Source: Chrysochromulina tobinii
Lineage: Eukaryota
Direction of reading: 5' to 3'
NCBI GenBank assembly: GCA_001275005.1
Contig: JWZX01003347.1
Span: forward strand, 1 to 49,306
DNA: 49,306 bases
A model generated the notes under the pieces. That model had not been told where the DNA came from, searched no databases, and saw nothing but the letters and a program-made list of their open reading frames with translations. Within the stretch, counting starts at the first letter, position 1, and each line of letters starts with the position of its first letter. Shown one piece after another: positions 236 to 48,756 of the stretch. A program made the translations under genes and the position numbers.

Positions 236-3062
236 ATGTCCGATTTCGCCCGCCTCTCCACGCTCTACAAGCAGTTGCGCGTCCTTGCTGCGAACGATAT
301 CCTCCCGGCACGAACGCTCTCCTTAGTGGCACGTATCCTCAACGCAGACCTCGATGTGCGCCCCACCCTCTCACCCCATGAACGTGCTGAGCTCAAGCAG
401 CTGAGCTGCACCTTGCCGCCGCCCGTCGAGCGGGGATCAGACGCCGTGCTCGCTGCGTTCGAAGCGCTGCTCTCGCGCTGCGTCCATATCGGTGTCTTGA
501 GCCCGGCGCAGCACCTCGCATTTCTCGCATTGCGAGACGAGGCCGCACGCATGGCTGAGGACGATGACGCCAGTGCTAGCGTCGACGAGTCTGACAGTTG
601 GAGCTTGGTCAGCGACGCGAGCAGCTGGGCGGGAGCCGGCGACGCCGAGGTGGCGAGTGCGACCGACGAGGCGCGCGCCTTCGCCGCCGTGCTCGAAGCG
701 CGGCTAGAGCCACTTCGCGCCGAACTCGGCAATACAACCATCCGCGACCTGTTGGCGGAGGTGGCGGCCCAGGGGCGAGGCGACGGCGTATCTTGCCAGC
801 TGCCACTCCTCGATGCAGACGCCTCGATGCAGTATACGGTTCTGCTCAAGGTGCAGCGTGCCGCTGACGCCGACGGCGCCGTCGACGCTTGCCCCGCTGC
901 TCCCCCCGCTGGCTGTGCGGACGAGACATTGGCCGATGCGCACCCGGTACTGTCGGTGCTTGTGAGCGCGCCCGCCTTTGGGACACGCCGCGACGAGCTT
1001 GTGCTGAGCGAGGCAGGCACGTGTGTCGGCACTGCACTACCTCTCGCCGCCGCGCTCAAGATCGTGGTTCGGATGATCACGGCACACCAAGAGGCTGTCA
1101 AGCTCGCATCTGTCCGTGCTGCGCTGCCGCGGCCCACGTACGCGCTCAAGCTCCGTCTGTTTGCCTCTGATTGCCTCTGATTGCCTCTGATTGCATCAGG
1201 TACGCGCTCAAACTCCGGACCGCATTGCCCGAAGCGACTGCTGCTGATCCCCGACCCCCCTCTGACGCCCCCTAACGAGCCCCTTGACGCCCTCCCTGAC
1301 GCCCCAGGCTGATGTTACGTGATGACGAGGAGTGGGCCGAGCTCCGACACGTCAGCCGCCACCTTCCTTTCCGCGCGTTTGATCCTTCTGAGATCAAGCG
1401 AGTCGCCATGGTGCAGCTGGCGTCGCGCCTGCTGCCGAGAGACGTGGCGGTGCTCAAGGTGGAGCCTGTGGTCTCGGCGAGGCTGTTTGAGCGCTTCCAG
1501 CGCGCGCTCGAGGCGGCACGGGGAGGCGATGACGAGGAGGCCGAAGAGGGCGCTCGAGGGACGACGGTGGAAGATGAGCGAAGACGAGAGAAGATGGGCG
1601 AGCAAGATGGTTCGGAGAGGGCAGAGGGGGAGGAAGCGGTGGAGGCGGAGGGGGAGCGGGAGGAGGCGGAGGCGGAGGAAGCGGTGGAGGCGGAGGGGGA
1701 GCGGGAGGAGGCGGAGGCGGAGGAGGCGGCGGTGGCGGAGGGCGCATGCAGCGAGGGCGACCCTCCACAGGGTATGGCGGTCACGGACCTAAACGAGCGC
1801 ATCTTAGCTCCGACGCTTGCATTCCACGGCGCTCCAAGCCACGAGGCGTTAGCCGGCATTCTAGCCGAGGGCCTGCTCGCTCCGGGAGAGTTGATCTCGC
1901 GCACCGGCCGCGTACTCGAGGCTCACCACGGTAATCGGTATGGTGATGGGCGGTATCTGAGTCAGGATCTGCATCTCGCGGCAGAGTACGCCCTCGCAGA
2001 TGCTACATGCAAGCGGCAGGTGCTTCTCTGCCTAGTCGCTCCCGGTCGGTGCGAGCGCCTTCCACACGGCTTTGAGGAGGACGCTGCCACCGATCGTGCA
2101 GCAATACGTCATGCCGATTGGCATTTGGCGCGCTGCCGCGTGTGCACCGCACCTCGGTGCGATGGGGTGCAGTGCAAGCTCCTTGCAGCCCGAGCAGCCC
2201 TCGACGAGTGGCGAGCACGGCAGCAGATGTGCACGCTTCACACAGCACCCGCGAAGCTCATCGTCGGGGCTGCGACCAGCATGGATGACGTCAAGCGCCA
2301 CGCGGCGGAGGTGGCAGCGAAGGAGGCAAGGCGTGCTGCGGGATTGAGCGAGCAGGAGCTGGCGGTGGGCTTTCGGCTCGAGTGTGCAGTTTCGCACCTC
2401 GAGAAGGAGGCGCTCAAGGCGGCGGCACTGGGCAACTACACCTGTCGCATCTCGCCCGATCAGAAGCAGATGGTCGTCGCCGAGGCCGAGCAGACCTTGC
2501 CGTTGCTACTGATCACCTTTGAGCGCCGGAAAGCCCTCGATCTGCGCCGGACTGGGCACTTGCTCGGCGGTCCTGCGCACGGGGCAGGGGTGACAATGCA
2601 CGCCCTTGGTAGCTGGGCAGGGGCGATGGCGATGGACGCGACGGCGACGGAGATGGGTGCTCGAAAGTCGCGCGAGGCCACGCGATGGTGCTCAATGCAT
2701 GGGGCAGACCATGCCCGCAGGCTCGCACGAGCTGCGAACGAGGCGGAGGAGACGGCTGCGGCGGAGGCCAATGTGTTCCTTAAGGAGGCTGCTCGGGAGG
2801 CTTTGGAGGCGACCGACGTGGCCGTTGAGGGTGCCGTTGAGGGCATGGAGACGTGCCGTCTGCTCGCTCCTATCAGGTTACCGAGGCTGCAGCCTGGTGA
2901 GACGTCCCCGGCGCTCAGTCTACGCACCACCCGCGAGCTCACTGCCACGATCATCGTCACGATCATGTCCGACCCCTCCGACGCTTTGATCGCCAGCCCT
3001 CGCTTTGTGACTCTCAACCCGCCCAAGCCACGCAAGCCTGCTGTGGGAAAGGCAAGGGGCGA

Positions 3063-3094
<32 letters not shown>

Positions 3095-6000
3095 ATGCAA
3101 CCTTTAAGCTCACCGCCGTGCGCGCAGTCGACTCGCCTGTCATCGTGCGGTATGTGCTCAGCGGGGCGGGCGCCGCCGGCCTGATTCCGCCGCCGTCGGC
3201 CAGCCTTATCATCCAGAGTTGCACCTGGGCAGTGACGATTACCGCGAGGTTGTCGAGCGAGCAACGGGAGCGCACGTGACAAGCAGGCTGCATCTCATCA
3301 CGGTCATCCACGGCGTCCCCGATGCAGAGCGATCCACGTGCTTTGCTGCCGCACGCCACATCGTGCGCGAGCTTCAGCCGCAGAGCACGGGGCTGATCGA
3401 GAGCGCGGAAGCCGTGCCGGCGCGTGTTTGTGCTCCGCTGGGCCCAGCGGAGCGGCTACTGACGAGACTGGATACTCTCAAGGCATCCCCCTCCCCCCCC
3501 GCCCCCCCCGCAAGGGTTGCACTTGGCAGCCAGGCGGCGGAGAAGGAGCGTGGTACTGAGGGGCTTCTCGGCGGTGTGATGGCCGCGCTCGACTTGGCGC
3601 TCAACAGGCTTGAGAAGGAGCGAGAGCAGCGGTTGCTGCGGGCAACGGCGCAAGCAGATCGGGATCTGTGGGCACTGCCACCGCCACCCTTCCGTGCGCG
3701 GGACGACGTCGTCGGCTGGTGCCGACGCGCGGTGGATGGCATCGTTCTGCACGCGGCGTCTCTGGGTGCGGCCGGTAAGCAGAGGCGGCAGCGATGGGTG
3801 GAGCAATCGGCCACGGCCCATGCGAAGCACTCGGATCGACAGCAGGATTCTCTCTTTATGATTCAAATCGTGCAGTACGGCCCAGCGCTCGCTCGAGCCC
3901 CGGATCCACTTGCTGGCAACGTGGGGTTCGCTCTACCAACCGACGTTCTCTCCGTCGCATCTCGACGAATCTCCGGATCTGGGCTCAAGCTCGCGGTGCG
4001 CTTGCTCATTGTGCAGCGACGATGCAGAGCCGGCGACGGCGCTGGCGGCCAAGGCGGCGCTGCAGACCATCGTGGCATGGGAGCCCACGCCGCTGTACGT
4101 CGCCCTGACTCGCAAAGCCCTTCCAGCGGCTGTGCGCCAGCTCAGCCAGGACGCTCAGCGCTGCTGCTTCGCGACGCCCCTCTCGTTGGCTTTACCGCCC
4201 ATCGCGCGTGTGCTGCATGCCGGGTTTGTCACGCAGATAGGCCAGCCGCCCGTCTGGTCGACGAGCCTACGGCTCATGCCCTCGGAGGGAGTCTGCTTGC
4301 TCTTCGAAGGGCCACCGCCCCACACATTTCTCCTCAACGGTTGTGAGGTGACCGCGCGCCTCCGCGGGCCTCTCCACCGAGCCGAAAGTGCTGAGGAGGC
4401 GTTATGTCGTCATGCCTTCCTCGATCCACCGCTGCTGGTCCAAATGCTCCGGCTAGTGCAGCGGCACGTGTGTGCGCTGCGTGTGGCAGCTGGAAGGCGC
4501 ACCGACGTCGTCGCAGCCGTCAAGTGGCTGAGGCAGCTCGTGATGGGACTGTCGGCGCCGCCCGTCAAGCTTGCCGGTCTTGACGCGCTGCACAAGCATG
4601 CGCTTGATGGCGCGTTGGCAGACCCTTCGCAACGCCACTCGATTCTGCGTGAGCGCCGACGGATGGCATCAGACCTGATGGTGGCGCTCAAGGAGGTGGA
4701 TGAGACGGCGCTGCTAGCAGCGGCGGCGGCGGGCTCCCAGGGCCTCACCGCCGCCTCTTTCCTTTCCAAGCCCTCGGAGCTCAAGTTTGGCGCTAAGGTG
4801 CTTCGTCGGGTGGCTCGCTCGGCTATGCCGGCGATCCGCGTCCCCTCGTTGCTTCGAGGGCTGCTGAGTGTCCAGAGTCGTCACGAGAGTCAGGATCGAG
4901 GAGGCGATGGCAAGGCGACGTGGACAGGTGATGAGGCGATGCCGCTCTCAAGCCACAAGGACCTTGCCGAGCGCGCGCTGTCCATGTGGGCCGAGCTTCT
5001 GGCGTTTGCAAACGCCGCCCTCCGCAGGGAGCGCACGGTGCCTCCGGGCGTCGGCGCCCTTCTCTACTCTTTTGGGATGGTGGGCATCCAGCTTCGCGTT
5101 GGCCGATCCGAAGCCGCCGCTATCAACCCCTGGGCCATTCGCATCGAATACCTCTCTCGCACTCCTTGCGACACAGTGACGGCTCTCTCTGCCCTCGACT
5201 GCGGCCACCAGCTCACGGATAGCACCGGTGAGCTCGCTCCAGATGTCTTGCCCCTCATCGACCCTGCCCTCGGCGGCAAAGCCTGCGAGGCGGTGGCCGG
5301 CTTCGTGAGATCGTCTCTCTATGCGACGCACCTCGCCCTTCTGTTCACCCGCTCACCCGCACTGCGCCTGCCGGCCCAGCGGGCGGCTCTGCTCGTCGTC
5401 TCGTTCGCCAAGGCGGCAGAGCAGCTGCTGCGCCGACGTGGGGGAGAGAGGGTCGCAGAGCCACGCGTCACGCGTCAGCCCTCCCGCTTTCAGCTGGATA
5501 CTAGCGTCGAGGACATGCGGCTCGCTCTCGCCATCTTGCACACCCTCGAGCTCACACAGGCGCACGCGACCGTTGTGCCCCAAGAGATGGCAAAGCAGCT
5601 CCTGGGACCGACTCCGGGAACATGTATGACCGAGGCGGGCGACGAGGGTCTCGACTCCCCCTGCCAGATCCTCGTCTTCCTCTGCCTCTCGCATGAGCTC
5701 TCCGCGCTCTTCGAGCCGACCGCAGAGGCGGCGGCTCAGCGCGCTCGGGTCGCTATGGCCCTTCTCGCCGAGGCTGTGTCGCGTTCGTGCCGCGTGCTGC
5801 TGCGCACGTCGCCGCCGCCGTGCGAGGAGCTCGAGGCTTGCTCGGGACAGAGCCCGATGATGCTCACCGCCCGCTCACTGGTGCGCAAGGCACTCGGCAT
5901 CAGCCCGGAGTCATGCCACGATGTGATGGCTGATGAGCTCGCCGAGCCGGCTGAGGTCAAGCATGCCGGCGAGTATGATGTTGACCTGGCGGTCCGCGCC

Positions 6001-6957: not shown

Positions 6958-7660
6958 GATGGAGATCTGTCTTCAAGACTGTACACTGTTAGACTGGTAG
7001 ACTCCCTTCCCGCTCCAGCTGAGAGCCGGTTCTTTCTTGTCGATCGTCGATCTTAATTCCAAATTCGGAGTTATTATTTTTGTAGAGGTATTGCGACATG
7101 TATGAATCGCCGTGTACAACTGAGTTGGTTTGCCTTTTATTCTTCCCCGCCAATCCCTGACCATACCGGGCATTCCAAAGCCCTCGGCACCGGCCTGGTG
7201 GTCCCGTCGGGGGTCAGCGTTTGAGGCATCAACTAGTAACCGAGTAGCATCTCACCCGCCGCTCCAGACAGCCACGGTTCTCGCATGCGAGAACCCCCAA
7301 TTACTCGTCATACACTCGTCATACACACGTCATACACACGTCATACTCACGTCATACTCACGGCCATACTAACCCTCATGGAACCCCATGTTCCAATGCC
7401 CCCCCCATCGAGCTCAGCTTCACAGTTCGTTGGGCTCGGTTGGGATGATTGTATAGTGTTAACGAACACGACGTCCCCCCAATGCCTCAGAAACCCCATT
7501 GTAGTCAGCTTCCGCGCCACCGTGCGCGGCCATAGGTCATGGAAGTCCCCCTGAGCGGTAGCGAGTCCTCTCAAGTGCGGTGTGCGGACGAACGCGAGGG
7601 CATCGAAGATGGGCATATGGTATGGGGTGGCCAGTGAGATAAGAGGCCACCCGCTGCCCC

Positions 7661-7854: not shown

Positions 7855-10800
7855 CTAGACCTTGTATGGTTTAGTCATTGGCTTATTCGTTGGGGCTTGG
7901 ATCCTCGGTGGCATTGGGGGCTTGGCGGCTGGCACCTTGCCCTTGCGCCTCTTGATGAGCACATACAGAGCAGAGAGCACGAGGCAGCCTCCGAGGCCGA
8001 GACCGAGGCCGAGCCCGAGAGGAAGGGCGAGCGAATTGCTAGTGTTGGGAATGTTGTCGTTGGTCGTGAATGTTGGCGCTGAAGTGACGGTGATTCCGAG
8101 GAAGGAGCTGGCGGCCGAAGTCGAGCCAAGTGTGGTGGCGAGAGCGTTCGTGACGCCGGAGGCGGTGGAGCCGACGGGAACCGCTATGACAGCTGTGATG
8201 ATCACGGAGCCGGCAGCGACTTGGACAACGACGAAGGACGGGGGGACCTGATTGGGGGGCATGGGGGTGGTGAGGGAAGGGGGAGGAGAGATGTAGGGGT
8301 TAGAAGTGACGGGCAAGGGGTGACGAGGTAGGGGGGTGGGTAGGGAAGGAGAGGGTAGATGCGGCTCTCACCCCGGCCGCCAGCGCAAACTTGATTTGGA
8401 GATTCGTCATCCTCTGCTCATTGTAGTCAGACACGCTGCCGGCCGCCACAAGCGTCAGCGTGACCGTAGCGGCGCTCCTATTTGTGACTGTGGTGCTGCA
8501 GACCGCATCAGTGTTCCTATTGCATAGACTTGTGACGCCGGACTCCATGCACGTGCTGCATGCCGTGCACGGCGTCAGGCCGGTAGAGCTCCAGGTGGAC
8601 CCCGAGTCGCAGTTGGTGGCGTTGTTCACAATCGTAAACCCGAAGAGGCCCTGTGAAGAGAGGGAAGGCATGAAGAGGGGAGAGAGGGGAGGTGTGAAAG
8701 AGGGTAGGACATGTTCGACGCTTGGAGATATGGGGGGGGGGGCATGCAGGGGGCGTGCTTAGCAGATGCAGGGGGGGTGTAGTGCATGGGAGCTCACGAG
8801 GGAAGATACCGCCCTTGGAGATACATGGGAGATGCACATAGAGATACATGCATGCTGGGAGAAGAAAGGGGGAGAGTGCAGGGGAGCTCTCAAGCGCAGA
8901 CCGCCTTCTCACCTCCTTGAAAGATAGGGCCGACGCGGCGTTTCCTTGAGAGTCGACCCAAGTGCCCGATTCCCATCCCATCACGTACCTGCGGAGAGGG
9001 GCGGGGCGGGAGGTGTGAAGAGAGGTGTGCACCGCTGGTCGAGTGCGGAAGGCAGGGTAATGATGATAGGGAGAAGAGAAGTATGAAGGGCCTTGTGGAC
9101 GGCGCGCCGTTTGGATGGCGCGTGTGGACGGGCGCTATGAAGGGAGATGTGCAGAGAGGCTGCCGCTGCCATGGCGCGGGCGCTCAAGCGGAGACAAACG
9201 TGCGACGTGAAGAGAGGTGTGAAGAGAGGTGCAGAGAGAGCGGTGTGGAGAGGAGCGGAGAGAGGAGTGGAGAGAGGAGTGGAGAGAGGAGTGGAGGGAG
9301 GTGTGGGAGAGAGGCGGGGCGGGAGGCGGAACGGGAGGTGTTGAACAGAGGCGGTAAGATCCGTGTGAATAGAGGGCGGTGTGAAGACGTACGTGGCGGG
9401 TCCCGCGAGCGGAGGCAGTGTGAACACGACCGAATACTCGTTGGAGGGCGCCGGCGTCGCATTCAGCGCCGGGTAAGTCACAAAGCTGGCCGTGGGGGCG
9501 AACATGTTAGCCAGGCCCCTGGTGGCGTTGTTCAGGACGATGATCTTCATGTCTGCCTTCGGGGTGAGTCGGGAGCTCGATTTAAACGTCGCCGTCACGA
9601 CGACTGAATTGGCCGTCAGAGCGGGTGTGAGGCGAACAAGGGTCGGCCCTTCGGAGCAGCCTGTCGTGTAGCCGAGAGCCCTCGAAGGAGGCTGAGCACT
9701 AGTTGTCCTGGCCGCGAGCTTGCGCCGACGGCCGTTCACAGTTCGGAAGCTCGGGCTCGTCACACTTGCAGCATCGGGAGCGTCCGAATCCTCGAGCTTG
9801 CGGCGTCCAGCGGAGGGTGCGGAGGGAGGGTCAACATTGAACCTGGCTTGATTTCCTGCGCCATCGATGATGGCGCCATCATCGATCGCGATCGTGTAGA
9901 CGGTGTTCGGCTTCCATTTGCGGGGCTCCGAGTCCTCGTCGGTGGGATCTGAGAGGAGGCGGACCTCGACACGAGATTCGTCCTCGTACACGATGACCTG
10001 TTTCGGATCTGGCATCGCGAGATTGTGGAACCATCATGGGGTGGGGGGGAGGGTGGGTGAGAGGGTGTGTGCGGGATATTCTCCGAGGGAGGTGGGCGGG
10101 GAACGAGGGAGATGCAGGGTGGATGGCGCACCATTCATCGCGACGGTGAATGTGTCGACCGTAGTGCCGTTGTACTTGCCAGTAAATGAGATGTTCTTGC
10201 CTGGGACTGCTTCAATGTACTCCTGTGATAGATATGGGGGAGAAATGGGGGAGATTCTGTGTGAGATTGAGATCGCATGGGACCCGTCGAGATGCAGGCG
10301 AGGTGTGATGTGAGGGGGATTGCATGCCTCCTCGTTGAAGCAGAGGACGAGCGGCTGCGTCTCGTCCACGTCCGTGGCTCCCCATTTGGCGTCCGCCTCG
10401 GGGCACTCTTGCAGAGTCGGGGGAGTGGTGTCCGGAATCGTGTTGAAGTAGTAGTACTCAGATTCAGTGGTCATGGCGGTCTCGGCCATGTCGTAGATGG
10501 CGTCCGCGGGAATCTTGAGTCGGAATTGGCCACCCGCATAGAGCGGGCAGTTCTCGTTTGGCGAGATCAGGAGCTGCGCGCCGTCCACGTCGATATCGGG
10601 GTTTGTGATCTTCTCGCCATCCTCGTCAGTCGCGATGAGGGGGAGGGCGCAGTACGGTTCCGTATCTGAGTAGGATTCCCAGCACGATCCCCATCCCTCG
10701 TCGCAGAGCTCGTCAATGCTGATCACCTTGTCGGAGTCGTCTGGGATACGGATCGCGCGGGAAAAGGTCGCCTTGATCGTCGAAGCTGTCGTGAAGGCTG

Positions 10801-13800
10801 GGGCTGCGTGGTCGATGGACTTGTTCGCACTCTCGTACCCGGCACCCCATGTCTCGTCTGGCGTCACAGCGGGAGGCGTGAAGCCAGTCAAGGTGAGCGC
10901 ACCCGAGAAATCTTCCTGCAACGCTCGGCGACCTGAGACAGTGAAGGTCGACGAGAATCCCGCGACATTGTTGCCTAGGCCGTCGTGAAAGTAGCCGGCG
11001 GGCACCGTGACGGTGTATGTGCCGGCTGAGAAGGTTACGTTTGAGAAGGCAAAGTTGGCGGTGGAAGCGCCGTCCTCGAAGAGGTTTAGCGTGATGGTGG
11101 TGGTCGGGTTGCCGCCGGCTGGCGCGACGGTCGAAGGGGAGCTTGGTGGGAAGCTCGCTGGGCAGCTGCCAGCTGAGCAGGCCTTGACGGCGCGCGCCGC
11201 GACCTGGGCAGGTACGAACGGGGGCGAGGGAGAAGTGAATGAGAGGTATGTGTGTGAGATGCGTGTGAGATGAGGGGAGGTGCGGGGAGATGCGCACCTG
11301 GCCAGTCTGGAAGGCGCCGTGGACAGTCCCTCTGAATAACGCCGACGTGTGCTCGCCTGCAAAGAAGAGTCTCCCTCCGACATTGCGACCAAAGGCGTCC
11401 GTGATGGTGTTCTTCGACGTACCTGCCATGATAGAAGACTCGGGGCAACTCAGGGGAAGGTCGGAGAACGGCACAGCCAACGGCAGCAGCGATGGGGGCG
11501 GCAGCGATGGGTTGGTCGACGCACCGACTGCGACATACGTGTACGCGCCCTTCGCAAGTGGATTGGCGCGCCAAGCCGAGCGAACGATCTGAGGCGCATC
11601 CGTCGGGACCGTGACAGAAGTCGGGAAGATCTTGACCAGATTCGCTCGGATCTGCGGGGGAGATGCCGGGGAGATGCGCGGGAGATCGTGAGCAGGTTCG
11701 TCCGGAACTACGCCCAGGCACTTGATGGGTAAGAGGTGTGCTGGAGAAGCGAGGGAGAACGCACCTGCGCCCAGACCTCGGCGTCGCTCATCCCTTCGGC
11801 CGTGTCGGCAGCCGCACCCAGTGCAAACGTCATGAGCACCGGCTTGGTCGACAGCTCATGCACGTTGAGGAAGTAGGTGAAGAGGCCGCGGTTGGTCCCC
11901 TGGGCAAGGCCATAATAGTGCGTGCCTGACGGCCACCAGTTGGTTGGAAACAAGAGTGCGATCTTGACGACGTTGCCGAAACCAAGCTGAGAGATGCCAT
12001 TTGCCGTAGCTGTCGGGAGTGCCGGGCTGAATGTGACTCTGGAGCTCGCGTCGGTGCTCTTGAGCACCCCGAGGGGGATCGTGATGATCACGTAATCAGC
12101 GTTGTACGTGCTGCTGTCCGCAGTCGTCAGCACAACTCCCGTGCTGTTGTACGTGACGGACGTGACGCGCTTGTTGTACGTGACCGAGATGGGCTGTCGG
12201 CTGGCGGACAGCACGGCGGTCACCTGCAGGGTGCTCGAGCCGTCATTTACCCGGACCGCGCCGCTCTGCAGCGCCTCGTACATCTGCTTGTACCCTTGTG
12301 CCCACACGAGCTCAGCGCCGTTAAATTTGGAATCATCATTGTAGTTCCAGGCTGACAGGTTAGTGACCGGCCCGGCGGTGTTGAACTCAGTGCTGACGGC
12401 GAGGTGGTACTGGAACAGCTCCGAATCTCGAGTCTGCCCCGAGTTCGAAAGGCCGGCGAGCGCCTGCCAAAGCGAAATGTCCGTCGTCGCCGAATTCTCC
12501 TGTGCTTGTGAGAGCAGGCTTTTGTACGGGTTGTACTGATCGTCGCTGGGTTCCGAGCAGGCCGAGTTCTGGTTTTCGGTGCAGAGGCGAAGTTCGGCCA
12601 AATTGTTTCTCGTCCGGACAAGTCCGGCACCTTCAGCCAGGCCCAGGGCCGTCGCGATCTTGGTGATCGGATGCGACTCATTGCTCCCGTGGATCCAGCT
12701 GGCGCCCATGTCCGTCGGCGCTCCCAGGGCGCCGGCGGTGTCCCAGGCCGTTCCCGCCTCGGCAGCATTCAGCGTCCATGTACGGCCACCAATGCGAGTC
12801 CCAGCTTCGAGCACCGTCAGCTCCAGGTGTCCTCCGTTTGCAGCAGTATCCCACGTGTCGATCAGAGTACGCGCCGCGGCGAGACCCGATGTGCCTGCAC
12901 CGACGACGACTACTTTGACAGTTGTGGCGACTGGCGTGGCAGACCGTGGCGACGGCGACGGCGACGGCGGTAGGGAGAGCGGCGGCAAGTGTGACGGCGA
13001 TGGTGCCTCACCTGAGCCCATGTCGCCGAGTGCGTCAGGTGGTGCCAGCGAGGGCGGGGACGACGAGGGCGACGGCGACGGCGGTTGGGAGAGCGGCGGC
13101 AAGTGTGACGGCGATGGTGCCTCACCTGAGCCCATGTCACCGAGTGCGTCAGGTGGTGCCAGCGAGGGCGGGGACGACGAGGGCGACGGCGACGGCGGTT
13201 GGGAGAGCGCCGGCGAAGGCGAAGCCAGCAGAGGCGATGGTGGGGAGGGCGTGCCCGTGTTGGTCGTGCTGGTATTGCGACTGCTCAGGCGGCTGGCGGT
13301 GCCGTGGTGGCCGTAGATGAGCAGGTTCCAGCTGCGGAGCAGCGAGTTGACGCTCGGACCGTTTGCGAGCCGCCGATCGCGGATCGCGAGCGTCCACGTG
13401 CCCACCGGGCTTTCGCCCCAGCTGCGCACGCTCGTCATCTTCCAATTGAAGCGTGGCAGGTAGAGCGAGGGCTGCCCGTTCGTGCCCGTCCAGTTCGCCG
13501 CAAGGCAGTCGTTATAGTCGCATTCGCAAGACTGAGGGTTGTCGCAAATGCCATCATTACTCGACGTGCACGTGTCGTCCTCGGCCGAGCAGCCCACGAC
13601 CGGCGGGTTGGACGTCTCGGGCCGCGGGCCGGGGGTCAGGACGGAGTGCGTGCCCGAGGGCGAGGTGAGCTCGAGCTGCAAGTCGCCGCGCGACGAGTGG
13701 TTGAGGTTGACGAAGATTTCGATCCACTCGATCGCCCACGCCTGGCTCTGTGCGCCGACCGTGACACTGGTCGACAGCGTCGAGCCATCGTGCGGGACGG

Positions 13801-18867: not shown

Positions 18868-21800
18868 ATGGCCGATGCTGTCGCGGAGTATGAGATTCGG
18901 AGGCGTGCTCCCCGCATGGCCTGGAACGACGAGACGCTCAAGCTCAAGGCGGCGTCCAAGTCGGCGCGGGAAGTGGCGGCTCTCAAGGACGTCGACGGTG
19001 CCAAGCAACTACATGTACAGCTACAGCAGGTGCTACAGAGGGACCCGTTCGCCGCACTTGGTGAGCTCTCGCAGCGCCTCTTCGGAACGTTTGGCAGTCC
19101 CGAGACGCCACCGACGCCAATTCCCAATATCGAAGTCGGTGGCAGAGGAGGAGGAGGCGTCGGCGCTGGCGCGTGGCGGCCAGTGACTCACCCCAAAGGC
19201 ACACGTGAGCCCGCTCGTGAGTTCTTAGCTTGGCTACGAGCGCACAATCTCGAGCTCAACGAGATCCTCTCCGACGACTGTGGCGTTCATGCTCGCGTGG
19301 TGCCTCGCGGCGAAACCACGCACCACCCTGCTGTCGACGCCCGAAACGACGCCCGAAACGACGCCCGAAACGACGCCCGAAACGACGCCTGCGCTACCAT
19401 TGGTGACCACAAACTCCCTCGGCCCGCGGCATCCATCTCGTCACCGGCGGCATCGATCTCGTCCCCAACCACGGGGCTCGCTCCCCATCGGCTGACCCTC
19501 CCGAGACTGCCCTCTTCAGGGCCGTCGACGAGCTGCTCCATTAAGTCTCCGCCCGCCGCAGGAGAGCCCAACACGACGCTCCACCCCGGCACGCCGTCAC
19601 CGCCGCCCAGCCAGTGGTCGGGAGACAAGCCGAATGGCACGCCGCCATCACCGCCCAGCCAGTGGTCGGGAGACAAGCCGAATGGCACGCCGCCGTCACC
19701 GCCCAGCCAGTGGTCGGTCCAGAGACCAAATGGGCATTCAAATGGGCCGAGAAAGGGCGCGAGCGCACACACGGACGCGGGCCGCTCGCCTCAGGCGTCC
19801 CGCCGAGCGAACGGCTCCGAGGGGCGCATGCAAGTGCCCAGCACGGCGCCCGCAGGCTCCGAGCGCCCGCGACGCATGCAAGTGCCCAGCACGGCGCCCG
19901 AAGGCTCAGAGCGCATGCAACGCCTCGACTTCGAGACGCTCGAGCTCTTAGAGGCACGCCAGGGAGGCACGCTCGCGCTCGACTCGCGCCGAAATCCGAC
20001 CAGCTCGTCGACGGAGCGCCTGCCGTCGATGCAGCTCAGCAGCACTCCGATAGAGCGGGGGCTCCCGCTCGATGCACCTGATGAGGGACGCAATCAGATG
20101 CAATCAGAGGTCATCAGATGCAATCAGTGGTCATCAGAGCGGGGGCTCCTCGGGCAGCTCCTCGGTGCCTCGCGGCTCACGCCCGCCGCGCACTACGTCG
20201 AGGCGGCCGCGGCGATACGTGGCACAGTGGACGGCGAGCGTGCGCGGATGAGCGCCGTTTGGTCACAACTCGACCTTCGTACGCTCGCCGCGCCTCGCCG
20301 CGCATACAGCGCGCGCTCTCCTCCCCATAGTGCTCTCTCCTCCCCTCCGTGCTCGCTCCCCCGAGCGCGCGTGCCTTACCCCATCCCCCGGCGGTCGCCT
20401 GATGAGGGATACAATCCGAGCTCATCATCATATCTCATCAGTGGCAATCAGGCCTCCTTGCCCCCGGCGGTCGCGCGACTGACCGCCGATTGCTTGACTG
20501 TGCGCTGCGCCGTGCCGGCAGGCGTGGGGCTCGCCATCCTCGAGCGCCAGCTCAAGCCCAAGGATCTCGTCCAGCTCTGGGACAAGAAGGGCAAGGGCGG
20601 GGTGAGCAAGGTCGAATTTCGTCAAGGCCTCATCCACAGCCTGGGGATCAGCGCGGAGATGAGGGCGGCCGACATTCTCTTTGACCAGCTCGACGATGAC
20701 GGCGGCGGCACTCTCGACTTGGGAGAGTTGGACTTGGCGCTGCGAAAGGTACTTGACGAGGCGGCGACGCGAGAGGAGAGCGAGGCGCATGCAAGTGCTC
20801 ACCACACGGCACCTCGTGTCCGCAGGTACGCGACAAGGCGGCGAAGCTACGGGCGAGCGAGGCGCATGCAAGTGCTCACCACGGCGCCTCGTGTCCGCAG
20901 GTACGCGACAAGGCGGCGAAGCTACGGGCGAGCGAGGCGCATGCAAGTGCTCACCACGGCGCCTCGTGTCCGCAGGTACGCGACAAGGCGGCGAAGCTAC
21001 GGGCGAGCGAGGCGCATCTCGGCGCGGTGGAGGCGGCGTGGATGGCGCAATTGACGAAGCTCGAGACGATTGCCAGCGCGACCAAGAGTGCGGTGCGGGC
21101 TCTAGAGGTCGCAGCCGCGTTGGGTGTGACGGCCGCTTCCATGGAAGATGCAGTCGCGGCGTTCACACAGGGGCCATCCGAGGGCGAGAAGGAGAGAGAA
21201 GGGGCGGCGAAGGTCGGAGCGACCATGCGGCCGATGAGCGAGCGCGCGCTGTGGAGAGACGCAGCTTCACCAGCAGAAGCGGCCGCGACCGCGGCGGCCG
21301 CCTTGACGCTGGCCCTGCAGTTGCAGCAATCTCTTGCAGAGGAGGAGGCGGAGCGCGCACGGTCCTCGATCCTCGCGCGCGAGGAGGCCGAGAGGCGGCG
21401 GCGCGAGCTCGAGGTGCTCGAGGCCTTCGACCGCACGCCCGTGCTGCCGTCGCTCGAGCTGCAAGGCCGGCTCGACGCGCTCGATATGGAAGTGCACGAG
21501 CTCAGCCGCGCGCCGCCGATCGCGCCGAGCTCCAACGCCGATACGAAAGTCGGGCAGGCGCTGGCCCAGAAGAATCTCATGACGCCAAAGGAAGTGGCCA
21601 AGGCTTGGGACTCCAAGGGGCGGGGGGAAGTCGGCCGGCTCGACTTCCGACTGGGGATTAAGGCGCTTGGGGTCAAACTCGACGAGAAGGAGGTGGACAG
21701 GCTGTTTGGCAGCCTCGACGCGGACGGTACCGGCGCCCTCGACGTGGCTGAATTGCACGAAGCCCTCCGGGTGCTGCGCGAGGCTGCTATGGAGGCTGAG

Positions 21801-22641: not shown

Positions 22642-25245
22642 ATGCCGCCGACGAGCCCCGTGGCTCCGAACCCCGTGCTCGGCTTCTTCGACAGCATCTT
22701 CTCCCCAATCGACAACCTCTTCAAACCGAATGAGAGCCCCACGAAGGGTGAAGTCGAGGGGGACGATGGCCCGTACTGGCCACCGCCGAAGCAGCCGAAG
22801 AAACCCCCAGAAGAAGGAAGCACACCCGGAAGAGTGAGCATCATGACGGAGAAGGACGCTCGGTTGGAAGGAATGCTGCAGCGGAAGCGCGAGGCTGCCG
22901 AGCGCCCATCCTCAATGGGCACGGTCATCGAGAGCAGTTCGACCAACCCGGTGACTCACGGAATGCTGCGCGTCGTATCGGGAGGCAGCAGTCAGTTGTC
23001 CGCACAGCAGGAGTTTGAGTTGAAGAAGGCCAAGAGGCGGGCGGAGGAGGAGGCCAAGGCGGCGGCTGGAGCGGCGCCGGCAGCGGTGCCCAAGACGGCC
23101 GCGGCGGCACAAGAAGCGAAAGCCGCACAAGAAGCGGTCGAAGCGGCACGCGCATATCGAGCCTATCGAGCAGCGGCACGTGAAGCGACTGCTGCCGCAC
23201 TGGCTGAAAAGGCGGCGGCGGATGTGGCGGCCACAGGCACCGACCTCTCTGACGACGATGGCGGTCTTGGCCGTCTTGCCCATGGCGGCGTCGACGCCGC
23301 CTCAAGGGACGACCCGAAGAAGGCATGGAAGAAGGCGGCTGAGGAGCCAGCCATGAACGACGGAGCGGCGGAGCCTGCTGCCATGAACGACGGAGCTGAC
23401 AACGAGGCGGACGACGAGGCGGACGAAGAGGTGGACGGCGAGGAGGTCAAGAGGGCGGCTAGTCTCTGGTCAGACGAACAAGCGCCGGCTCTGCCGCCTC
23501 GGACGCCGACGCCGCCGCGCCCGATCAAGGCTCGCGATGATCAGACCGCGGCACGCCTCGGGCGGCTGCCGCACGAGGTGCTCGTGGACCTTGTGATCGA
23601 GGCGTGCGCGACGAGCGAGCACATGCGCTGCGCCTTGGAGCGCGCCCTCGCGCAGCATGTTCACGGTCCCGAATCTCCGACCAGCGCCCTCTTGTCGTCA
23701 CCAGACATGCGCGTGCCTCTCCTTGTGCCTCTGACGGTGCGACGGGTGTCGAGGAGCCCCGCGGGGGTTGGCGCGAGTCCCGTGGGGCGTTCGTGGCGCC
23801 AAGAGTGGGTGGACGCGATGATGGAGCGCGGCAAGCTGAATGGCGATGAGTACAGCCGATCGATGTTCGAGTCGGGTGGCGTCGCGTCGATAGAGAGGAT
23901 CATGATGGACCTAACCGTTCCTATCCAGAGCAAGGTGGACAGCGGCTGGTCGCGAGAGCATGCCGAGGCATATACGCTCATTGGCCCGTTCCTCGCTGCG
24001 CCGCTCGCAGCCGCCACGCGGGAGCGCTCGCCCAGGTACGCGGCGTGCATGCGTGCGCTGTGCGAGGCTCTCGCGGATCAGGCGAAGCGGCTCACGGCCC
24101 CAGCCCCGCCCGTCTACATCAACCTGACCGGCAAGCAAGGGCTAGCCGCCGAGGACCCTGCATGGGATGTACTGCGTTCTCCAAAGGCACAGCCAGGCCT
24201 CCGCTTCGTCACCGACGGCCTCGGGAAGGCGTTCCTCCCGACGCCCAACACCTTCCCCGACGACAAGGGCTTCTGCGTGGTCATGAGCAGGGGAGGACGC
24301 GACGTGTATGAGCTGCAGGACTCGGATGTAGTGTGCCTCCGGAGCGCGCCTACTGACGCCAATGGCTGCCACTCGCTCATTCCGACGAGCGGCGGCGGAG
24401 CGCACGCGCTGCCGCCCTTCGCGACTGTCACACTCGAGAAGGTGATGCAGCCGGGCGAGTGGGAGGTGTGCGGTCAACATGTCAAGAGGCGGCTGCTGAT
24501 GGTGGGGGTCACGCTGAGCGACGATGCTGCGCAGAAGCCGTCGAACAGGCGCGCCATCTACGCGGGCGTCGCTCAGCTCTCGCCGCGCGGACCTGCCGAG
24601 CTGAGCTACGCCGAGCTCCCCGCCGCCCCACTCGATCTCACGAGCGAGAGCGCGAGCGAGATCGTGAGCAAGATCGTGCCGCGCGAGCTCCACTTTGCCG
24701 ATTATAAGGAGGCGGCCGCTGTGAAGAAGGCGGCAGCCGTGAAGGAGGGGGCAGCTGTGAAGGAGGCTGAGATCAAATCCTCGAGACCTCCGAGATCAAA
24801 CGATAGGCGCGCTCGCCGGGAGAGCGCCGCGACGGGCACCCCGCCGATGAACAGCGCTGGGCCCAAGCTTCCAGACTCGCCTTCAGAAAGCCTCCTTCAG
24901 AAGAGGGAATCGTTCGCAAAACAACGAGAATTCCTCAGAGCCAAGGAGCGGGAAGCCCTCCTGAACGAGGAGAATAACCCGCTGTACAACCCCGACATGC
25001 CCCCCACACCGCCCCGACGTGGCCCCACGCCGCCGCCCCGCGGTGTCCCCATCGCCGCGGTGATCTGTGCGCCCACGCCGCCGCCCCGCGGGCAGAGGAG
25101 CCCCGAGGAGGCGAGCGCCGTGGTGAGCACCGCGGTGAACTCCGCGGGGGCGAGCGCCGATACCGTATCGAGCGCTGCGCCCTTTTCGAAGAGTCCTGCG
25201 GTACTCTTTCTCGGGGACTCGCTCAAGGATCAGGTGGCGGAGTGA
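22642..25245 (+). CDS. Hypothetical protein; low-complexity ends, central globular domain weakly resembling an ADP-ribosyltransferase fold
   Basis: Long ORF 22570-25245 with first ATG at 22642. Globular part ~23900-24520 (PPVYINLTG...ALPPFATVTLEKV). It may splice on at 25233 to 25368. Confidence 0.65.
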   Translation: MPPTSPVAPNPVLGFFDSIFSPIDNLFKPNESPTKGEVEGDDGPYWPPPKQPKKPPEEGSTPGRVSIMTEKDARLEGMLQRKREAAERPSSMGTVIESSSTNPVTHGMLRVVSGGSSQLSAQQEFELKKAKRRAEEEAKAAAGAAPAAVPKTAAAAQEAKAAQEAVEAARAYRAYRAAAREATAAALAEKAAADVAATGTDLSDDDGGLGRLAHGGVDAASRDDPKKAWKKAAEEPAMNDGAAEPAAMNDGADNEADDEADEEVDGEEVKRAASLWSDEQAPALPPRTPTPPRPIKARDDQTAARLGRLPHEVLVDLVIEACATSEHMRCALERALAQHVHGPESPTSALLSSPDMRVPLLVPLTVRRVSRSPAGVGASPVGRSWRQEWVDAMMERGKLNGDEYSRSMFESGGVASIERIMMDLTVPIQSKVDSGWSREHAEAYTLIGPFLAAPLAAATRERSPRYAACMRALCEALADQAKRLTAPAPPVYINLTGKQGLAAEDPAWDVLRSPKAQPGLRFVTDGLGKAFLPTPNTFPDDKGFCVVMSRGGRDVYELQDSDVVCLRSAPTDANGCHSLIPTSGGGAHALPPFATVTLEKVMQPGEWEVCGQHVKRRLLMVGVTLSDDAAQKPSNRRAIYAGVAQLSPRGPAELSYAELPAAPLDLTSESASEIVSKIVPRELHFADYKEAAAVKKAAAVKEGAAVKEAEIKSSRPPRSNDRRARRESAATGTPPMNSAGPKLPDSPSESLLQKRESFAKQREFLRAKEREALLNEENNPLYNPDMPPTPPRRGPTPPPRGVPIAAVICAPTPPPRGQRSPEEASAVVSTAVNSAGASADTVSSAAPFSKSPAVLFLGDSLKDQVAE

Positions 25246-25795
25246 CTTCCAAATGGCGCCGTGGTGAGCACTTGCATGCGTCTCGCTCTCGGGGACTCGC
25301 TCGAGGATCGGGTGGCGGAGTGACTTCATCTGCACACGCCCATCGGCTCCAACGTCGTGTCGCCCAGGGTTCGGCAGCTCGTTGCGTCCTGTGGGAGCCC
25401 CCGGGCAGAGTAGGGACGACATCTGGTGGGGATCGCTATTTCTGGTCTGATCGGTGCGTGTTTGTGGAGATCCGGAGGTGGCTGACTGTTACTGTCTGTC
25501 CGTGTTGGGTCATGTGTGGAGACACCGGAGGTTATCATACGTTTGGCTCGGCCGCGCCATGCAAGAGGCATATCGGTGTCGCGTCGTCCCAAAAGTAGAG
25601 CCCAGTCGCGAGTGGGGACATTGGATGTCCACGTAACCACGAGATGATGTAGCTGTTTGACGGTCTGTGTTTGTTGTGCTGATTCTAATTACATGTTCTA
25701 TGTACATGTAGATGAACTGGCACGCATGCATCCACAATTCGCGAGCTCCGGCGCGGCCACGCCCCCTCTTTCTGTTTCACTCCCAGGTCGCCACA

Positions 25796-31873: not shown

Positions 31874-33217
31874 TCATGCGGTGCGGCACGAGTCGAAGGC
31901 TCCGATGAGAGCGCTGGCCATGCCAGCCGTCCCCATGGCCATGATGACGACCATCCGTGCGATCGCAGCGGGCGTGCGCTCGGCTGGAGGCATCAGCTTG
32001 AGGTAGAACCACGGAGGGAAGATGAAGATCATCGCGTTGTTGCACGTCCCGCCCACGAGACCCATGACGCAGAAAAAGTGTGTGCCAATTGCCCAGATCA
32101 TCAGGGCCACGCAGCCCATGGTGAGCGCTCGTATCGCCACCTGCTGTGCACTGTAGTCGGCGGCCCCTGCGTAGTGGTCCATGATCTGGCCCAGAGGGAT
32201 GTGCACGGTCACAGCAGCGAAGAGCAGATGGACGGTCACTGCGATCAGGCCAAAGGTGTGAAGAGCAGATAGACGGTCACTGCGATCAGGTGCAATCAGA
32301 TGCAATCACGTACCTGCGATCAGGCCAAAGGTGTCGATAGGGCCGCTAAAGTTGGTGAGGATGTCGGAGCCCACAGCTCCGCCGAGCGTGAGCACCGAGC
32401 CGATGGAGGATGCGAGATACATCGAGGTGCAGGCAGCAAAGGAGCCGACGATGGCCTTGCGGAATCGCGCGGGTGTCGGGTTGAGCATGGTCGCCTGCAG
32501 CGCGGGAAGAATGGCATGCCCTCCGAATCCGAAGAGAATCACACCAAACGCAGAGCCGAAGGTCGAGAAGGTCACCGCCGGAGGTGGCGCGTACGGATCG
32601 TGGGGAGCATCCGTGGCGCACAGGATCACGACGACGACGACGAGAACGACCGATGCGAGGATGGCGAGGATGGCGGTGCCCCAAACGTGGCCCGGGCGAA
32701 GGAGCATCAGCGGCGCAAGAGCCCCGGAGCCGACGAGACTAAAGAAGAGGCTCGAGCGCTGCGGGACGAGTTTGTTCAGATTGATCCCCGAAATCAAAAG
32801 GAAGAGGACGAGCACACAGAACTGGGTGAGCACCTGCGCTAAAGTGACCGCTGCTGCACCGACTGCTCCGGCCGCCTTCCACCCTATCGCAGCATACGGC
32901 GAGCGAGCAAAGTAGCTGCTCTCGCATGGTTCCTCCGACGCGTACGCATCCGCACCTTCGACAATCTTCTTACGTGGCGTAGTCAGGCTGTAGCAACGAC
33001 CTAAAATGTCAGCCGTGTAGGCGGAGAGAATCGCTGCGCACACTACCAAAACGGAGCCAGCCACGAGGCCAGACTGATTGATGGCTTTAGGAAGTGACAA
33101 GATCCCAGCACCGGCACAGTTGGCGATGATGAGCAGCGACGTTTGCACGATCCCGTTCTTCACGATCACCCGTGGAAGAACATGGTCCGCCGCTGGCAGC
33201 AACTCATCGCCCAACAT
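31874..33217 (-). CDS. Amino acid transporter (Aa_trans/AAAP, AVT1-like)
   Basis: ANCAGAGILSLPKA, SAYTADILGRC, FGFGGHAILPALQATM and MGLVGG..FIFPPWFYLKL with multiple TM segments. One intron 32313-32239 restores frame (IA|VTVH). Confidence 0.9.
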
Positions 33218-46105: not shown

Positions 46106-46143
<38 letters not shown>

Positions 46144-48756
46144 CGCCTCGTGTGCTAAGCGCTCGCGTAGCGCGCTCATCGTGCGCATGATGCGCAAATG
46201 CTCGCGCTCCGGCCACTCCCGAATGAGAGTCCGGACCGTCATAGAGCTCATCACGCGGGAGTGGGCCATCTCCTCGTTGGTCATCGGAGAGCGACGGCTC
46301 TCACTCAAGTGGCGCTCGATGGCGTTCCGCTCGTATGTGTACCCGTCGGCGGCCACGACTGGATCACGCATCACCTCGAGCGTGATCGCGCACTTGAACT
46401 CCCCGGGCATCTCGGACAGTTCCGCGGGCGCACCGACCGCGCACCGCTCGGCACGACGCTTGGCCTCAGCTTCGGCTTCGTCAAGGGCGTTGCGACCGCC
46501 ACGCAGTGCCACGTCGAAGGCGGGAGAGCGCCCCGCCACCTGCGCCATCAGAGGTCATCAGAGGTCATATCCGAGGTCATATCAGAGGTCATCAGAGGTC
46601 ATCAGAGGTCATCAGAGGTCATCAGAGGTCATCAGAGGTCATATCAGAGGTCATCAAAGGTCATCAGACGTCATCTGAGGTCATCTGAGGTCATCAGAGG
46701 TAATCCGAGGTCATCCGAGGTCATCCAAGGAGAGTGCCCCGTCACCTGCGCCACAGCCTCAAGGGAGCGTTGCACCGCCACACGCAGAGCGTCGACGTTC
46801 CCATCGGCATCGTCGATGGTCGTGGCGAGCAGGTCCCCCAGCCTCTCTCGATGCTCATCGAGCTGCCCAGTCTCGAAGGCCGGGGAGTCGGTGCCCACGA
46901 GCAGCAGAGCGGCACGCAGCTCAGGCGCCGTCGTCGCACGCTCGAGCCTCTCCAGGATGGCCGCCCGGGCGGCCTCCTGGGCGCGTACCGCGGCGAGCCG
47001 AGCCTCGGCTCTGAGGATTCGAGACCTCTCGACCTGCCAAATTTGGGCCAATTCGGAGGTTTCGTCAGATGCACTCGGATGCACTCAGATGCACTCAGAT
47101 GCACTCAGATGCATTCAGATGCACTCAGATGCACTCATATGCACTCATATGCACTCAGATGCACTCAGATGCACTCAGATGCATTCAGATGCACTCAGAT
47201 GCACTCAGATGCACTCATATGCACTCATATGCAAGCTCTCTACCTTGGCCTGGCGTGCCTGCCGGATGGCCACCTCGAGGCCATCACCCACCGCGTTGCT
47301 CTCCGCCAGCGTGAGCGCTTCGAGCGCCGTGCGCCTGCGCAGCTGTGGCAGCATGCCTCGGGCGCGCAAGAGCAATGCGTGGTCACATGGGACTGGGCAG
47401 GCATGCGCTGCCTCGAGCGCCGTCTCGAGCACGAGGAGGAGCGCGGAGGCGGCGGCGGTCATCGCTCCGCCCACACGCAGCGCAGCCACCTTGGAGTCGA
47501 TGCCGTGGTCGTGATTGGAATGGATCTCGACGCGAACACGGTCCGCGCTCCCCGCCTCCGCTGCGGTGAGAAGTGTGACCCATCCTTCAGTCAGAGAGAG
47601 CGCGACGACCTTAGTGGGAGTCCATCGAGTGGTCTCGTCCGCCCCGGTGCGTGTGAGCAGCAGCAGGCGCGAAGGCGAGTAGTTGTCGAAATCCTTGACA
47701 TGGAGATCGATCGCGCCAAGCGGCCAGCCAGGGCGGGGCGAGGCGAGCTCAATCCAGTGCTGGCCCGACTGCCCACTCGATTGCCAATAAGTCTCGAGCT
47801 GCGCGGGAGCGAGGGGAGCACATAGGGAGCACAGGGAGGTCAGCATAGCGAGGTCAACGCAGCTAGGGCAGTGGTGGAGCCCGGGCTCTGATGTGCGGCA
47901 GCGAGCTCGCAGCTCGAGCTCGCGATCTCGCCACGAGCTCGCCGACTTCACCTTGCCATCGAGGAGATTGGAAGCTTGATGGCGGCCGTCCGTCGACGAG
48001 ACCGTCACGGTCGGCTCGAGCAGCCACGGCCGAGGGCCTCGCCAGCCGAGCAGCGCCGATGTGGTGGAGGAGGCCGCCGTCGCCGCGCCACCGTCGCCGC
48101 CGCCGACAGTCGCGCCGGACGCGGCGGCGCTGCTTGCGGCGCCCAAAGCGGTGGCGGCGGCGGCGGCGGCGGCGGCTGCGCCGTTGCCGCCCGAGATGCC
48201 CAAGGCGGCCTCGATGACCTCGACCGCGTCGAGCAGCGGCGTCTCGACCATCGCTCGCTGCACCGCGACCAGTTTCGAGCGCGCCTCGTGCAGGACCGAT
48301 GCGGCGACGGTGCCACAGCTCTCGGCGGCCTCGAGCGTGCGCTGCAGCAGGCCGACGGGGTCGTCGATCACGCGCTCGATTTCTGGTACCTTGCCGTGCC
48401 AGTTGTTGTGGCCCGGGAAGTCCACGTCGCACCGCTCGCCGTCCATGCGCACCACCCTGCCCACACTCGTCGAGCGCACGTTGCCCCAGCCGAGCGATGG
48501 GATTACACCGGGCCGCACGCGCACCCGGTCGCCCACCTTCAACGGCGCCGCATCGGTGCAATCGCTACCGTTGATGAGGGTATGCACCATGGCCATCGCC
48601 TGCGGCGCGCGCGCAGCAGTCAGCGAGGGGGAACCTTTTCTGGAAGGAGATGGGTGCGAGGGGCGTGGGCACCTCGAGCAGCGACTTCTCGGCTTCAGAT
48701 ACGGAAGGAGGCACCGCACGGCGCCCTCGGGAGGACCGAGTTTGGCCGGATGGCAT
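45358..48756 (-). CDS. U-box E3 ubiquitin ligase with CPH (Cul7/PARC/HERC2-like SH3-fold) and APC10/DOC domains
   Basis: Exons 48756-48673, 48599-47952, 47798-47244, 47033-46746 and 46539-45358, all GT-AG and phase 0. Motifs LKVGDRVRV..GWG.V...VG.V..VDFP..W.G; NLLDG|LETYWQSSG..HWIEL..GIDSKV; FKCAITLEVMRDPVVAADGYTYERNAI..SPMTN. Confidence 0.85.
46547..46725. repeat. Intronic decamer satellite (ATCAGAGGTC)n
   Basis: About 17 degenerate units inside intron 46745-46540. Confidence 0.95.
47065..47233. repeat. Intronic decamer satellite (GATGCACTCA)n
   Basis: About 16 units inside intron 47243-47034. Confidence 0.95.

Follow-up and report, generated by a model that had tools for sequence, protein, structure and literature searches.

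Long duplications of host sequence around satellite filler in introns of Chrysochromulina tobinii, possibly scars of staggered-break repair

How do introns of the haptophyte Chrysochromulina tobinii come to carry copies of the exon sequence that flanks them? The question is raised by a window of 49,306 nt (the whole stretch of DNA analysed here, contig JWZX01003347.1), in which a preliminary description had listed seven introns with such copies and had proposed intron gain linked to duplication. Our analysis of the window and of metagenome loci suggested that the duplication-plus-filler pattern in introns is largely real and genome-wide, though some of the listed cases fail. Four of the introns have RNA joints:

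46540..46745, minus strand: 206-nt intron of a U-box gene, with RNA joint, duplication and read-through in homologues
32239..32313, minus strand: 75-nt intron of an amino-acid permease gene (Pfam PF01490), with RNA joint, DNA contig and copies
47034..47243, minus strand: 210-nt satellite intron with RNA joint, its copy of the exon start limited to 8/10 bases
11652..11764, minus strand: 113-nt intron with RNA joint and a decayed internal copy of its own exon junction at ~11680-11717

In the U-box gene, both splice sites lie within a 25-bp duplication straddling AG|GT (copies 46729-46753 and 46523-46547, 23/25 identical), and 10-mer satellite forms the filler between the two copies. An RNA contig skips exactly 206 nt here and the exon copy is significant in local alignment (p ≤ 0.001), bearing out the bracketing by a duplication that had been described. 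The permease intron, said to contain copies of both exon flanks, does so: a donor and two satellite units are followed by a copy of the exon junction and then by 21 bp that copy the end of the upstream exon (21/21 and 30/31 identical). Its 75 nt are removed at an RNA joint, and one DNA contig bridges 31800-34151 with zero differences; the order of the pieces may reflect two stacked events. The decayed copy claimed for 11652-11764 was likewise supported (p ≤ 0.001). At 47034-47243 the intron itself stood, and the decayed copy is borderline (local-alignment p = 0.18; in the anchored comparison, 8/10 in 2/1046 and 11/20 in 13/1046).

The remaining listed introns are predicted and weaker:

11423..11524, minus strand: predicted 102-nt intron, from the reading frame, opening with a decayed copy of the start of the following exon
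1138..1307, plus strand: predicted 170-nt intron, from the frame test, with its first 18 bases duplicated (1138-1155 and 1200-1217)
8989..9392, minus strand: predicted intron whose exon copy has p = 0.14 (anchored 72/1046)

The copy at 11423-11524 found statistical support (p = 0.012; anchored 5/1046), and its junction is absent among the RNA joints listed. For the first intron, the reported 17/18 match is present, the copies being separated by 44 nt of satellite filler with AG at its end; the claim that 1138-1199 is an intron followed by its exon copy did not hold. Cutting out 1138-1199 gives a stop at codon 325, which rules it out as an intron, and cutting out 1138-1307 leaves an open 957-codon frame. 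Since the frame requires 1138-1307, the second copy would be intron sequence and the 5' splice site doubled; from the frame, 1200-1217 is predicted to be intron rather than exon, barring a micro-exon made by a weak GC donor at 1206 or 1227. The exon copy of 1138-1307 was not above chance (p = 0.82), and the region, with an RNA depth of ~1, has none of the RNA joints listed; the window stretch 1000-7000 has no RNA cover and was excluded as evidence. The decayed copy claimed for 8989-9392 was rejected, as only a 6-base donor motif is common to the intron and the next exon. Over all introns, an unbiased count that covers the 16 window introns, exon copies were nominally significant in 5/16, of which four survive a 16-fold correction. 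Of the seven listed cases, 1138-1199 and 8989-9392 fail.

Homologous proteins are continuous across the 46540, 47034 and 32239 sites (63-72% identical, on contigs taken as genomic by inference), the 47034 site being read through by P0059/P0064. These three sites thus appear to be intron-free in the homologues, whose contigs are probably genomic. A sister lineage that is ~95% identical shows a break at the 32239 site already. Some pairs of near-identical alleles (L046/L079 and L101/L112) are distinguished by entire copy-plus-filler units; in 20 allele pairs, no case was seen of an intron that one allele had in full and the other lacked. Because 27/43 duplicate pairs are perfect among the matches listed (locus L109 left out of this count) and units are polymorphic between alleles, the process looks recent, in line with that part of the earlier proposal of an active or recent mechanism.

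The metagenome survey comprised at least 130 loci picked by the satellite pattern. Among the matches listed, 130 loci gave 110 clusters and 99 arrays with 60-nt flanks, of which 55 scored ≥ 12 and 44 were single events. Satellite arrays lying between locus-specific direct repeats accordingly made up 55/99 usable arrays among these matches, against 1/990 in mismatched and 28/445 in same-locus controls, so that the association of long duplications with satellite filler, as first described, is far above chance across many loci. The satellite pattern had 0 matches in viral contigs; prokaryote genomes gave seven matches to the same kind of pattern, of which the four inspected were isolated and were left out. 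The nonzero same-locus control might point to an assembly artefact or to similarity by chance in a genome rich in repeats and GC, as might tandem units, 77 and 82 nt long and near-perfect, which assemblers could collapse or expand, and the two listed cases (1138-1199 and 8989-9392) that turned out to be chance or misread. Such an origin is scarcely credible for the pattern as a whole, given the RNA joints, the unbroken DNA contig, the recurrence of the same duplicated loci in separate assemblies and the copies' own substitutions.

The anatomy of the 44 single events among the matches listed was variable. Duplications spread continuously from 14 to 47 bp (median 26), the 14-bp minimum being set by the score cut-off, which shorter repeats could not pass. 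Fillers measured 34-142 nt with no common unit length, and their inverted repeats did not exceed 3 bp. A GT-AG cut is possible in 24/44 of these events, and in 14/44 a cut would formally be allowed on the opposite strand too. Clean exon-intron-exon cases number only 11/44; the remainder mostly lengthen existing introns. Left junctions often fall 0-18 nt past a donor, but targeting of 5' splice sites is not claimed because satellite masking hides purely intronic events. Four duplication-plus-filler sites beyond those described earlier were also seen in the window:

20749..20975, plus strand: predicted intron of three units, each a copy of the exon start plus a second filler family
20052..20149, minus strand: perfect 14-bp repeats enclosing 70 nt of satellite filler that is antisense to a plus-strand gene
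20385..20474, minus strand: 62-nt filler between perfect 14-bp repeats, antisense, within predicted intron 20279-20521
25209..25327, minus strand: 41-bp duplication (39/41), not an intron, covering the final codons of a plus-strand ORF and its stop

At 20749-20975, unit 1 is diverged and units 2 and 3 are near-perfect. The filler at 20052-20149 is in frame and stop-free, and would add 28 codons if unspliced. The 25209-25327 duplication surrounds 37 nt from the second filler family, in antisense. The same footprint thus occurs in antisense, inside an intron and at a stop codon, and two unrelated filler families show it. The proposal of duplication-linked intron gain therefore stands for the duplications and their filler and fails on specificity for making introns: the footprint is found at existing splice sites, in intron interiors, at a stop codon and in a coding exon in antisense.

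Insertion of non-LTR elements typically leaves long duplications of variable length. By target-primed reverse transcription, an enzyme of the non-LTR type could copy excised satellite introns, or a SINE-like RNA, into DNA at a nick; acceptor-ended fillers would then result from priming at the intron 3' end, and donor-started ones from priming inside the satellite with copying to the 5' end. The variable duplication lengths agree with such a source. So does the orientation of the terminal motifs, which are common to many loci: relative to the satellite, the donor motif was sense in 10 and antisense in 0 instances and the acceptor motif sense in 71 and antisense in 3 (matches listed). Microhomology, again among the matches listed, was significant only at the filler 3' junction, where such priming would occur (3.45 vs 2.31 in the null, an average effect of < 1.2 bases; 3.06 vs 2.35 after removal of 12 acceptor-ended events, 1/1000 permutations), and not at the 5' junction (2.70 vs 2.31). 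The unselected antisense insert at 20385, a single case, stops exactly at the acceptor motif, CCCTCATCAG. These last two observations count against a repair origin, the one-junction microhomology fitting reverse-transcription priming equally well. Fillers in the listed single events, however, begin with the donor motif in 4/44 and end with the acceptor motif in 10/44, with both motifs in 0/44 and neither in 30/44; the 20052 insert runs 13 bases beyond the acceptor motif; and pieces of ≥ 8 bp templated by the flanks lie inside 4/43 fillers (matches listed, without L109; null mean 0.45, max 3), as they do in 32239-32313. On balance, we regard RNA-templated insertion as possible, if rather doubtful.

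Alternatively, template switching may act locally at existing introns, copying the exon end, splice site and nearby satellite before slipping and jumping back, so that introns grow and few or none are new. The accessible text on amphioxus 'mirage' minisatellites describes such amplification of an existing exon-intron boundary (PMC3087553). Tandem boundary-spanning units with copy numbers that vary between alleles occur here as well, in L046/L079, L101/L112 and 20749-20975; units including satellite account for 11/55 events among the matches listed, the 85-nt unit of L101 that is missing in L112 has a filler continuing the local satellite, and many single events extend over a splice site that was already there, 1138-1307 among them. 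Whatever the main mechanism, local switching very probably accounts for some of the events. As the general explanation it is unlikely: unlike mirages as described in that source, 44/55 listed events are single duplications around filler. Moreover, homologues are continuous across 46540, 47034 and 32239, and simple slippage on the strand of the host intron itself could not produce antisense inserts. In 11/44 single events (matches listed), no satellite lies within 90 nt on either side and the frame is open across the cut, so that the filler came from elsewhere; by their reading frames, these 11 are candidates for intron gain.

The reading that we prefer, at a probability of about 0.5, is that satellite runs between copies of host sequence are scars left by staggered breaks, the filler having been copied from introns rich in satellite and selection then acting for spliceable outcomes. 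It builds on the duplication-filler-duplication anatomy, the four spliced window introns, the variable lengths and the polymorphism of units between alleles. Also in its favour are the excess of flanked arrays over both controls, the flank-templated pieces inside fillers, the microhomology at the filler 3' junction, the footprint seen in antisense, in an intron and at a stop codon, its occurrence with two filler families and the homologues continuous across three sites. Weighing against it are the low share of clean candidates (11/44), the lack of any intron-less allele among the 20 pairs and the break at 32239 in the sister lineage. A break with two long 3' overhangs would lead to duplication of host sequence; a broken end would prime on an intron satellite through a few matching bases, copy, slip and rejoin. 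Exonic events would be retained by selection only if cleanly spliced, which could happen where GT opens the copy and an acceptor closes the filler, where a donor opens the filler and AG closes the copy, or where AG|GT is held within the copy itself. Events overlapping an existing splice site would merely lengthen that intron, and long repeats would drive gain and loss of units through unequal exchange. We also put forward, tentatively and as somewhat improbable, a transposon-free intron factory in which excised introns, being branch-point-like 10-mer arrays with ready splice ends, are copied as RNA or DNA into long staggered breaks.

Interstitial telomeric repeats are inserted at breaks as simple-repeat filler between target duplications and can form an intron; the filler here differs from the telomere hexamer in being a family of variable 10-mers with splice-like ends. 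Most subscription papers and supplements lay outside our literature search, which found no description of the pattern in haptophytes, and the following comparisons draw on partial texts of the sources. Breaks with 3' overhangs yield tandem duplications (PMC8355091), and in Daphnia pulex 33 neointrons with flanking repeats of 4-12 bp have been attributed to repair of staggered double-strand breaks (PMC4202315; review PMC3443670). As in those neointrons, a direct repeat of the flanking exon is found at the intron end above background, whereas the repeats are 14-47 bp here (the lower bound from the score cut-off) and the filler is a recurrent satellite bearing donor or acceptor motifs. A tandem genomic duplication that includes AGGT can also create an intron (PMC3443670), and 46540-46745 resembles this in that a duplicated AG|GT supplies both of its splice sites; our events differ in having mostly foreign filler between short copies, the filler often giving one splice site.

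Introners of Symbiodinium and Polarella recruit one or both splice sites from the target duplication (bioRxiv 10.1101/2020.10.14.339549), and one reported in a Chrysochromulina sp. MAG has 4-bp duplications and no inverted repeats (PMC9860276). Related sequences at many introns and splice sites drawn from a duplication are common to these systems and ours (PMC9860276; PMC12130899), and a MITE-like DNA-transposon family might be suspected from the donor and acceptor motifs shared between loci, from the RNA-confirmed use of duplicated splice sites at 46540-46745, as in Polarella elements, and from the MAG report. In the available accounts, however, these introners are unit-length elements with duplications of 3-8 nt fixed per class, and neither feature holds here, nor has any filler both terminal motifs. 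Such a family is thus very improbable, and duplication length, inverted repeats and unit length largely refute a classical DNA introner for these events, including the introner route with target-site duplication that the preliminary description had cited as a proposed one.

Transposons are held responsible for most of the bursts of intron gain on record, and the case for gain by break repair is built on few examples, with short repeats. In the present data, a long and readily scored footprint is found at more than half of the satellite arrays sampled among the matches listed, and its units differ between near-identical alleles. For gene prediction, this is a warning that decoy donors and acceptors lie beside many real splice sites in these genomes. 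If the intron factory were real, each satellite intron would seed new introns, and the 14-47-bp duplication would provide the missing splice site and permit amplification or precise deletion of the new intron. If the pattern is what it appears to be, one lineage would offer many datable events and a test of repair versus retro-copying as a source of introns; under the repair reading, introns still forming could readily be found and studied here.

The window is eukaryotic, with a GC content of 58–68% and short introns in which 10-base repeats abound; its GC content and intron density resemble those of Chrysochromulina tobin in the available part of the genome description (PMC4580454). This resemblance and the type of repeat would suggest a haptophyte. 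RNA-run contigs skipped the 75 nt of 32239–32313 (−) in an amino-acid permease gene and, in a U-box gene, the 206 nt of 46540–46745 (−) and the 210 nt of 47034–47243 (−). Every one of these three joints came from a single contig of a single run, and the DNA-run contigs contained none of them. Seven further RNA joints were among those listed, including 11652–11764 (−), with one of the seven only roughly placed. Thus, four introns proposed in the preliminary description were confirmed in RNA. Additionally, a single contig from a DNA run that may derive from the same culture as the window spanned 31800–34151 with zero differences; therefore, the nested copies in the permease intron are not specific to the window's assembly. 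At 32056–32336, RNA-run contig X16 retained this 75-nt intron, which was spliced out in another run; X16 may be unspliced RNA, a retention product or DNA carry-over. A GC-AG intron at 10223–10327 (−) was also RNA-supported.

Each of 16 window introns was aligned to its own 60-base junction and compared with 1000 random coding 60-mers. Own-junction similarity was significant in five introns and not in the other 11. The bracketing copies claimed for 46540–46745 and the flank copies claimed for 32239–32313 held (p ≤ 0.001 for both); similarity was equally significant for 11652–11764 and the predicted intron 20749–20975 (+) (p ≤ 0.001). Among the introns described as carrying decayed copies, 11652–11764 and the predicted 11423–11524 (−; p = 0.012) retained that status; 47034–47243 (p = 0.18) is spliced and its copy was borderline in an end-anchored test (2/1046 at 10 bases, 13/1046 at 20 bases), and the predicted 8989–9392 (−; p = 0.14) was at chance level in that test. 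Similarity was likewise not significant for 1138–1307 (p = 0.82) and eight other introns. The exon copy claimed for 1138–1199 was mistaken: removing this segment alone gave a stop at codon 325, whereas removing 1138–1307 left 957 open codons, and the 18-base copy is, as far as the sequence indicates, the predicted intron's own start, doubled. By eye, a reading frame at 1309–3279 (+) has motifs similar to those of PARP-type catalytic domains; it apparently shifts near a GCC run at 3063–3094.

A very long multi-domain gene occupies 7900–18260 (−), with a zinc-protease HExxH motif and subtilisin-like and flavin amine-oxidase-like parts (by eye). One base at 13995 was absent in all four runs and 11 bases at 16099 in three of the four, so the apparent frameshifts of this gene are probably window assembly errors. 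The 90%–95% similarity of RNA and DNA contigs here points to paralogues.

Satellite-type filler (variable 10-base repeats) or an unrelated second filler family also lay between or beside copies of host sequence at these positions, which the preliminary description had not listed:

20052–20149, antisense: copy-filler-copy, in frame in a coding exon
20385–20474, antisense: copy-filler-copy within an intron
25209–25327: copy-filler-copy, a 41-bp copy across a stop codon, second-family filler
20749–20975 (+): three units of exon-start copy plus second-family filler

These occurrences indicate that the process is not restricted to making introns. A long plus-strand reading frame contains two 42-bp copies at 19825–19914, both of which open with a variant of the second family's motif.

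A scan for two satellite units recovered at least 130 metagenome loci, forming 110 clusters, 99 with sufficient flank; direct repeats in the two array flanks were scored with the satellite masked (threshold ≥ 12). All counts that follow are among the matches listed. Direct repeats flanked 55 of the 99 arrays, compared with 1/990 mismatched pairs and 28/445 satellite-free pairs within the same loci. Eleven events were tandem units including the satellite, and 44 were single events with duplications of 14–47 bp. Local slippage of the amphioxus type, in which tandem minisatellite units span an existing exon–intron boundary (PMC3087553), accounts for a subset, and it is improbable as the main route. 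In 24/44 single events, one copy together with the filler could be excised precisely by a GT-AG cut, and in three more by a GC-AG cut; a formal opposite-strand cut was possible in 14/44. In 11/44, the reading frame was open for 60 codons spanning the cut and satellite was absent from the adjacent 90 nt; most of the remaining events overlapped an existing donor or acceptor (by eye). Upstream flanks were called coding on the satellite-sense strand in 31/44, using a model that classified 335/400 training pieces correctly.

In the available parts of the respective sources, the closest system, Daphnia neointrons from staggered breaks, has repeats of only 4–12 bp (PMC4202315), introners have duplications of 3–8 nt, constant per class (bioRxiv 10.1101/2020.10.14.339549), and a Chrysochromulina introner has a 4-bp duplication (PMC9860276). 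The available main text of PMC12130899 does not mention haptophytes, and no description of the copy-plus-filler pattern was found in the literature searched.

Fillers of the single events were 34–142 nt long (median 64.5) and contained no inverted repeats > 3 bp. The common donor motif began 4/44 and the acceptor motif ended 10/44, with none having both; the filler is no unit element. With L109 (one metagenome locus) left out, duplicate pairs were perfect in 27/43, and 4/43 fillers contained an extra flank-derived piece ≥ 8 bp (null mean 0.45, maximum 3). At the filler's 3′ junction, continuity with known filler extended over 3.45 bases, compared with an expectation of 2.31 (maximum 2.91 in 300 permutations), and dropping 12 acceptor-ended events left 3.06 against 2.35 (1/1000 permutations); the 5′ junction was not significant (2.70 against 2.31). 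Microhomology at one junction only and intron-like filler termini would fit RNA-templated insertion, which we consider rather unlikely. Break repair with captured filler, to which we assign a probability of roughly 0.5, is favoured because the ends vary, the fillers belong to two families, some pieces are templated by the flanks and non-genic sequence is hit as well.

We infer the following steps. Staggered cuts with 3′ overhangs would leave two long copies around an insert, the break being repaired with captured filler between them. Non-LTR insertion likewise involves staggered cuts with 3′ overhangs. Such cuts are an established source of tandem duplications at breaks in the available part of PMC8355091. 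If GT and AG lie at either end of the copy or in its middle, cutting one copy plus filler would restore the exon; selection alone would therefore suffice for the three splice geometries.

Permease homologues crossed the 32239–32313 site gap-free in protein alignment, and one, 63% identical, had an unbroken 424-residue ORF on a 20-kb, most likely genomic, contig. A protein of a lineage ca. 95% identical (P0033) breaks at the same site; thus, this intron predates the split from that lineage, whose full-length permease (P0005) may be transcript-derived. Among the U-box homologues, both window intron sites are read through by P0059 and P0064, and that of 46540–46745 also by P0060. P0061 veers into unrelated residues where the window gene stays continuous, and P0059 and P0064 begin downstream of this apparent intron. 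At 47500–47520 (−), the relative (P0061, P0059, P0064) thus apparently has an intron that the window gene lacks and is without the window's two, so intron positions differ both ways. The contigs of these U-box homologues (3.9–5.9 kb) are by inference genomic.

Whole copy-plus-filler units differed in two of 20 locus pairs among the matches listed, near-perfect units being collapsible by assemblers: L079 carries 93-, 77- and 82-nt units missing from L046 (97% identical), and L101 an 85-nt unit missing from L112 (96% identical). All lay at introns common to both alleles, and no whole-intron presence/absence was found in these 20 pairs. L046:1–1001 and L079:1–1503 cover an intron-dense gene in which several successive introns have flanking-exon copies, with both filler families and unequal unit counts between alleles.

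The duplication-plus-filler process is real and frequent, and is apparently ongoing. We regard it as a variant of break-repair intron gain, from which some new introns probably arise and by which many old ones have probably been lengthened. CTGAT within each 10-base unit of the window satellites (e.g., 1156–1194, 46546–46725) fits the branch-point consensus. Arrays bearing this motif may furnish branch points and hence ease splicing.
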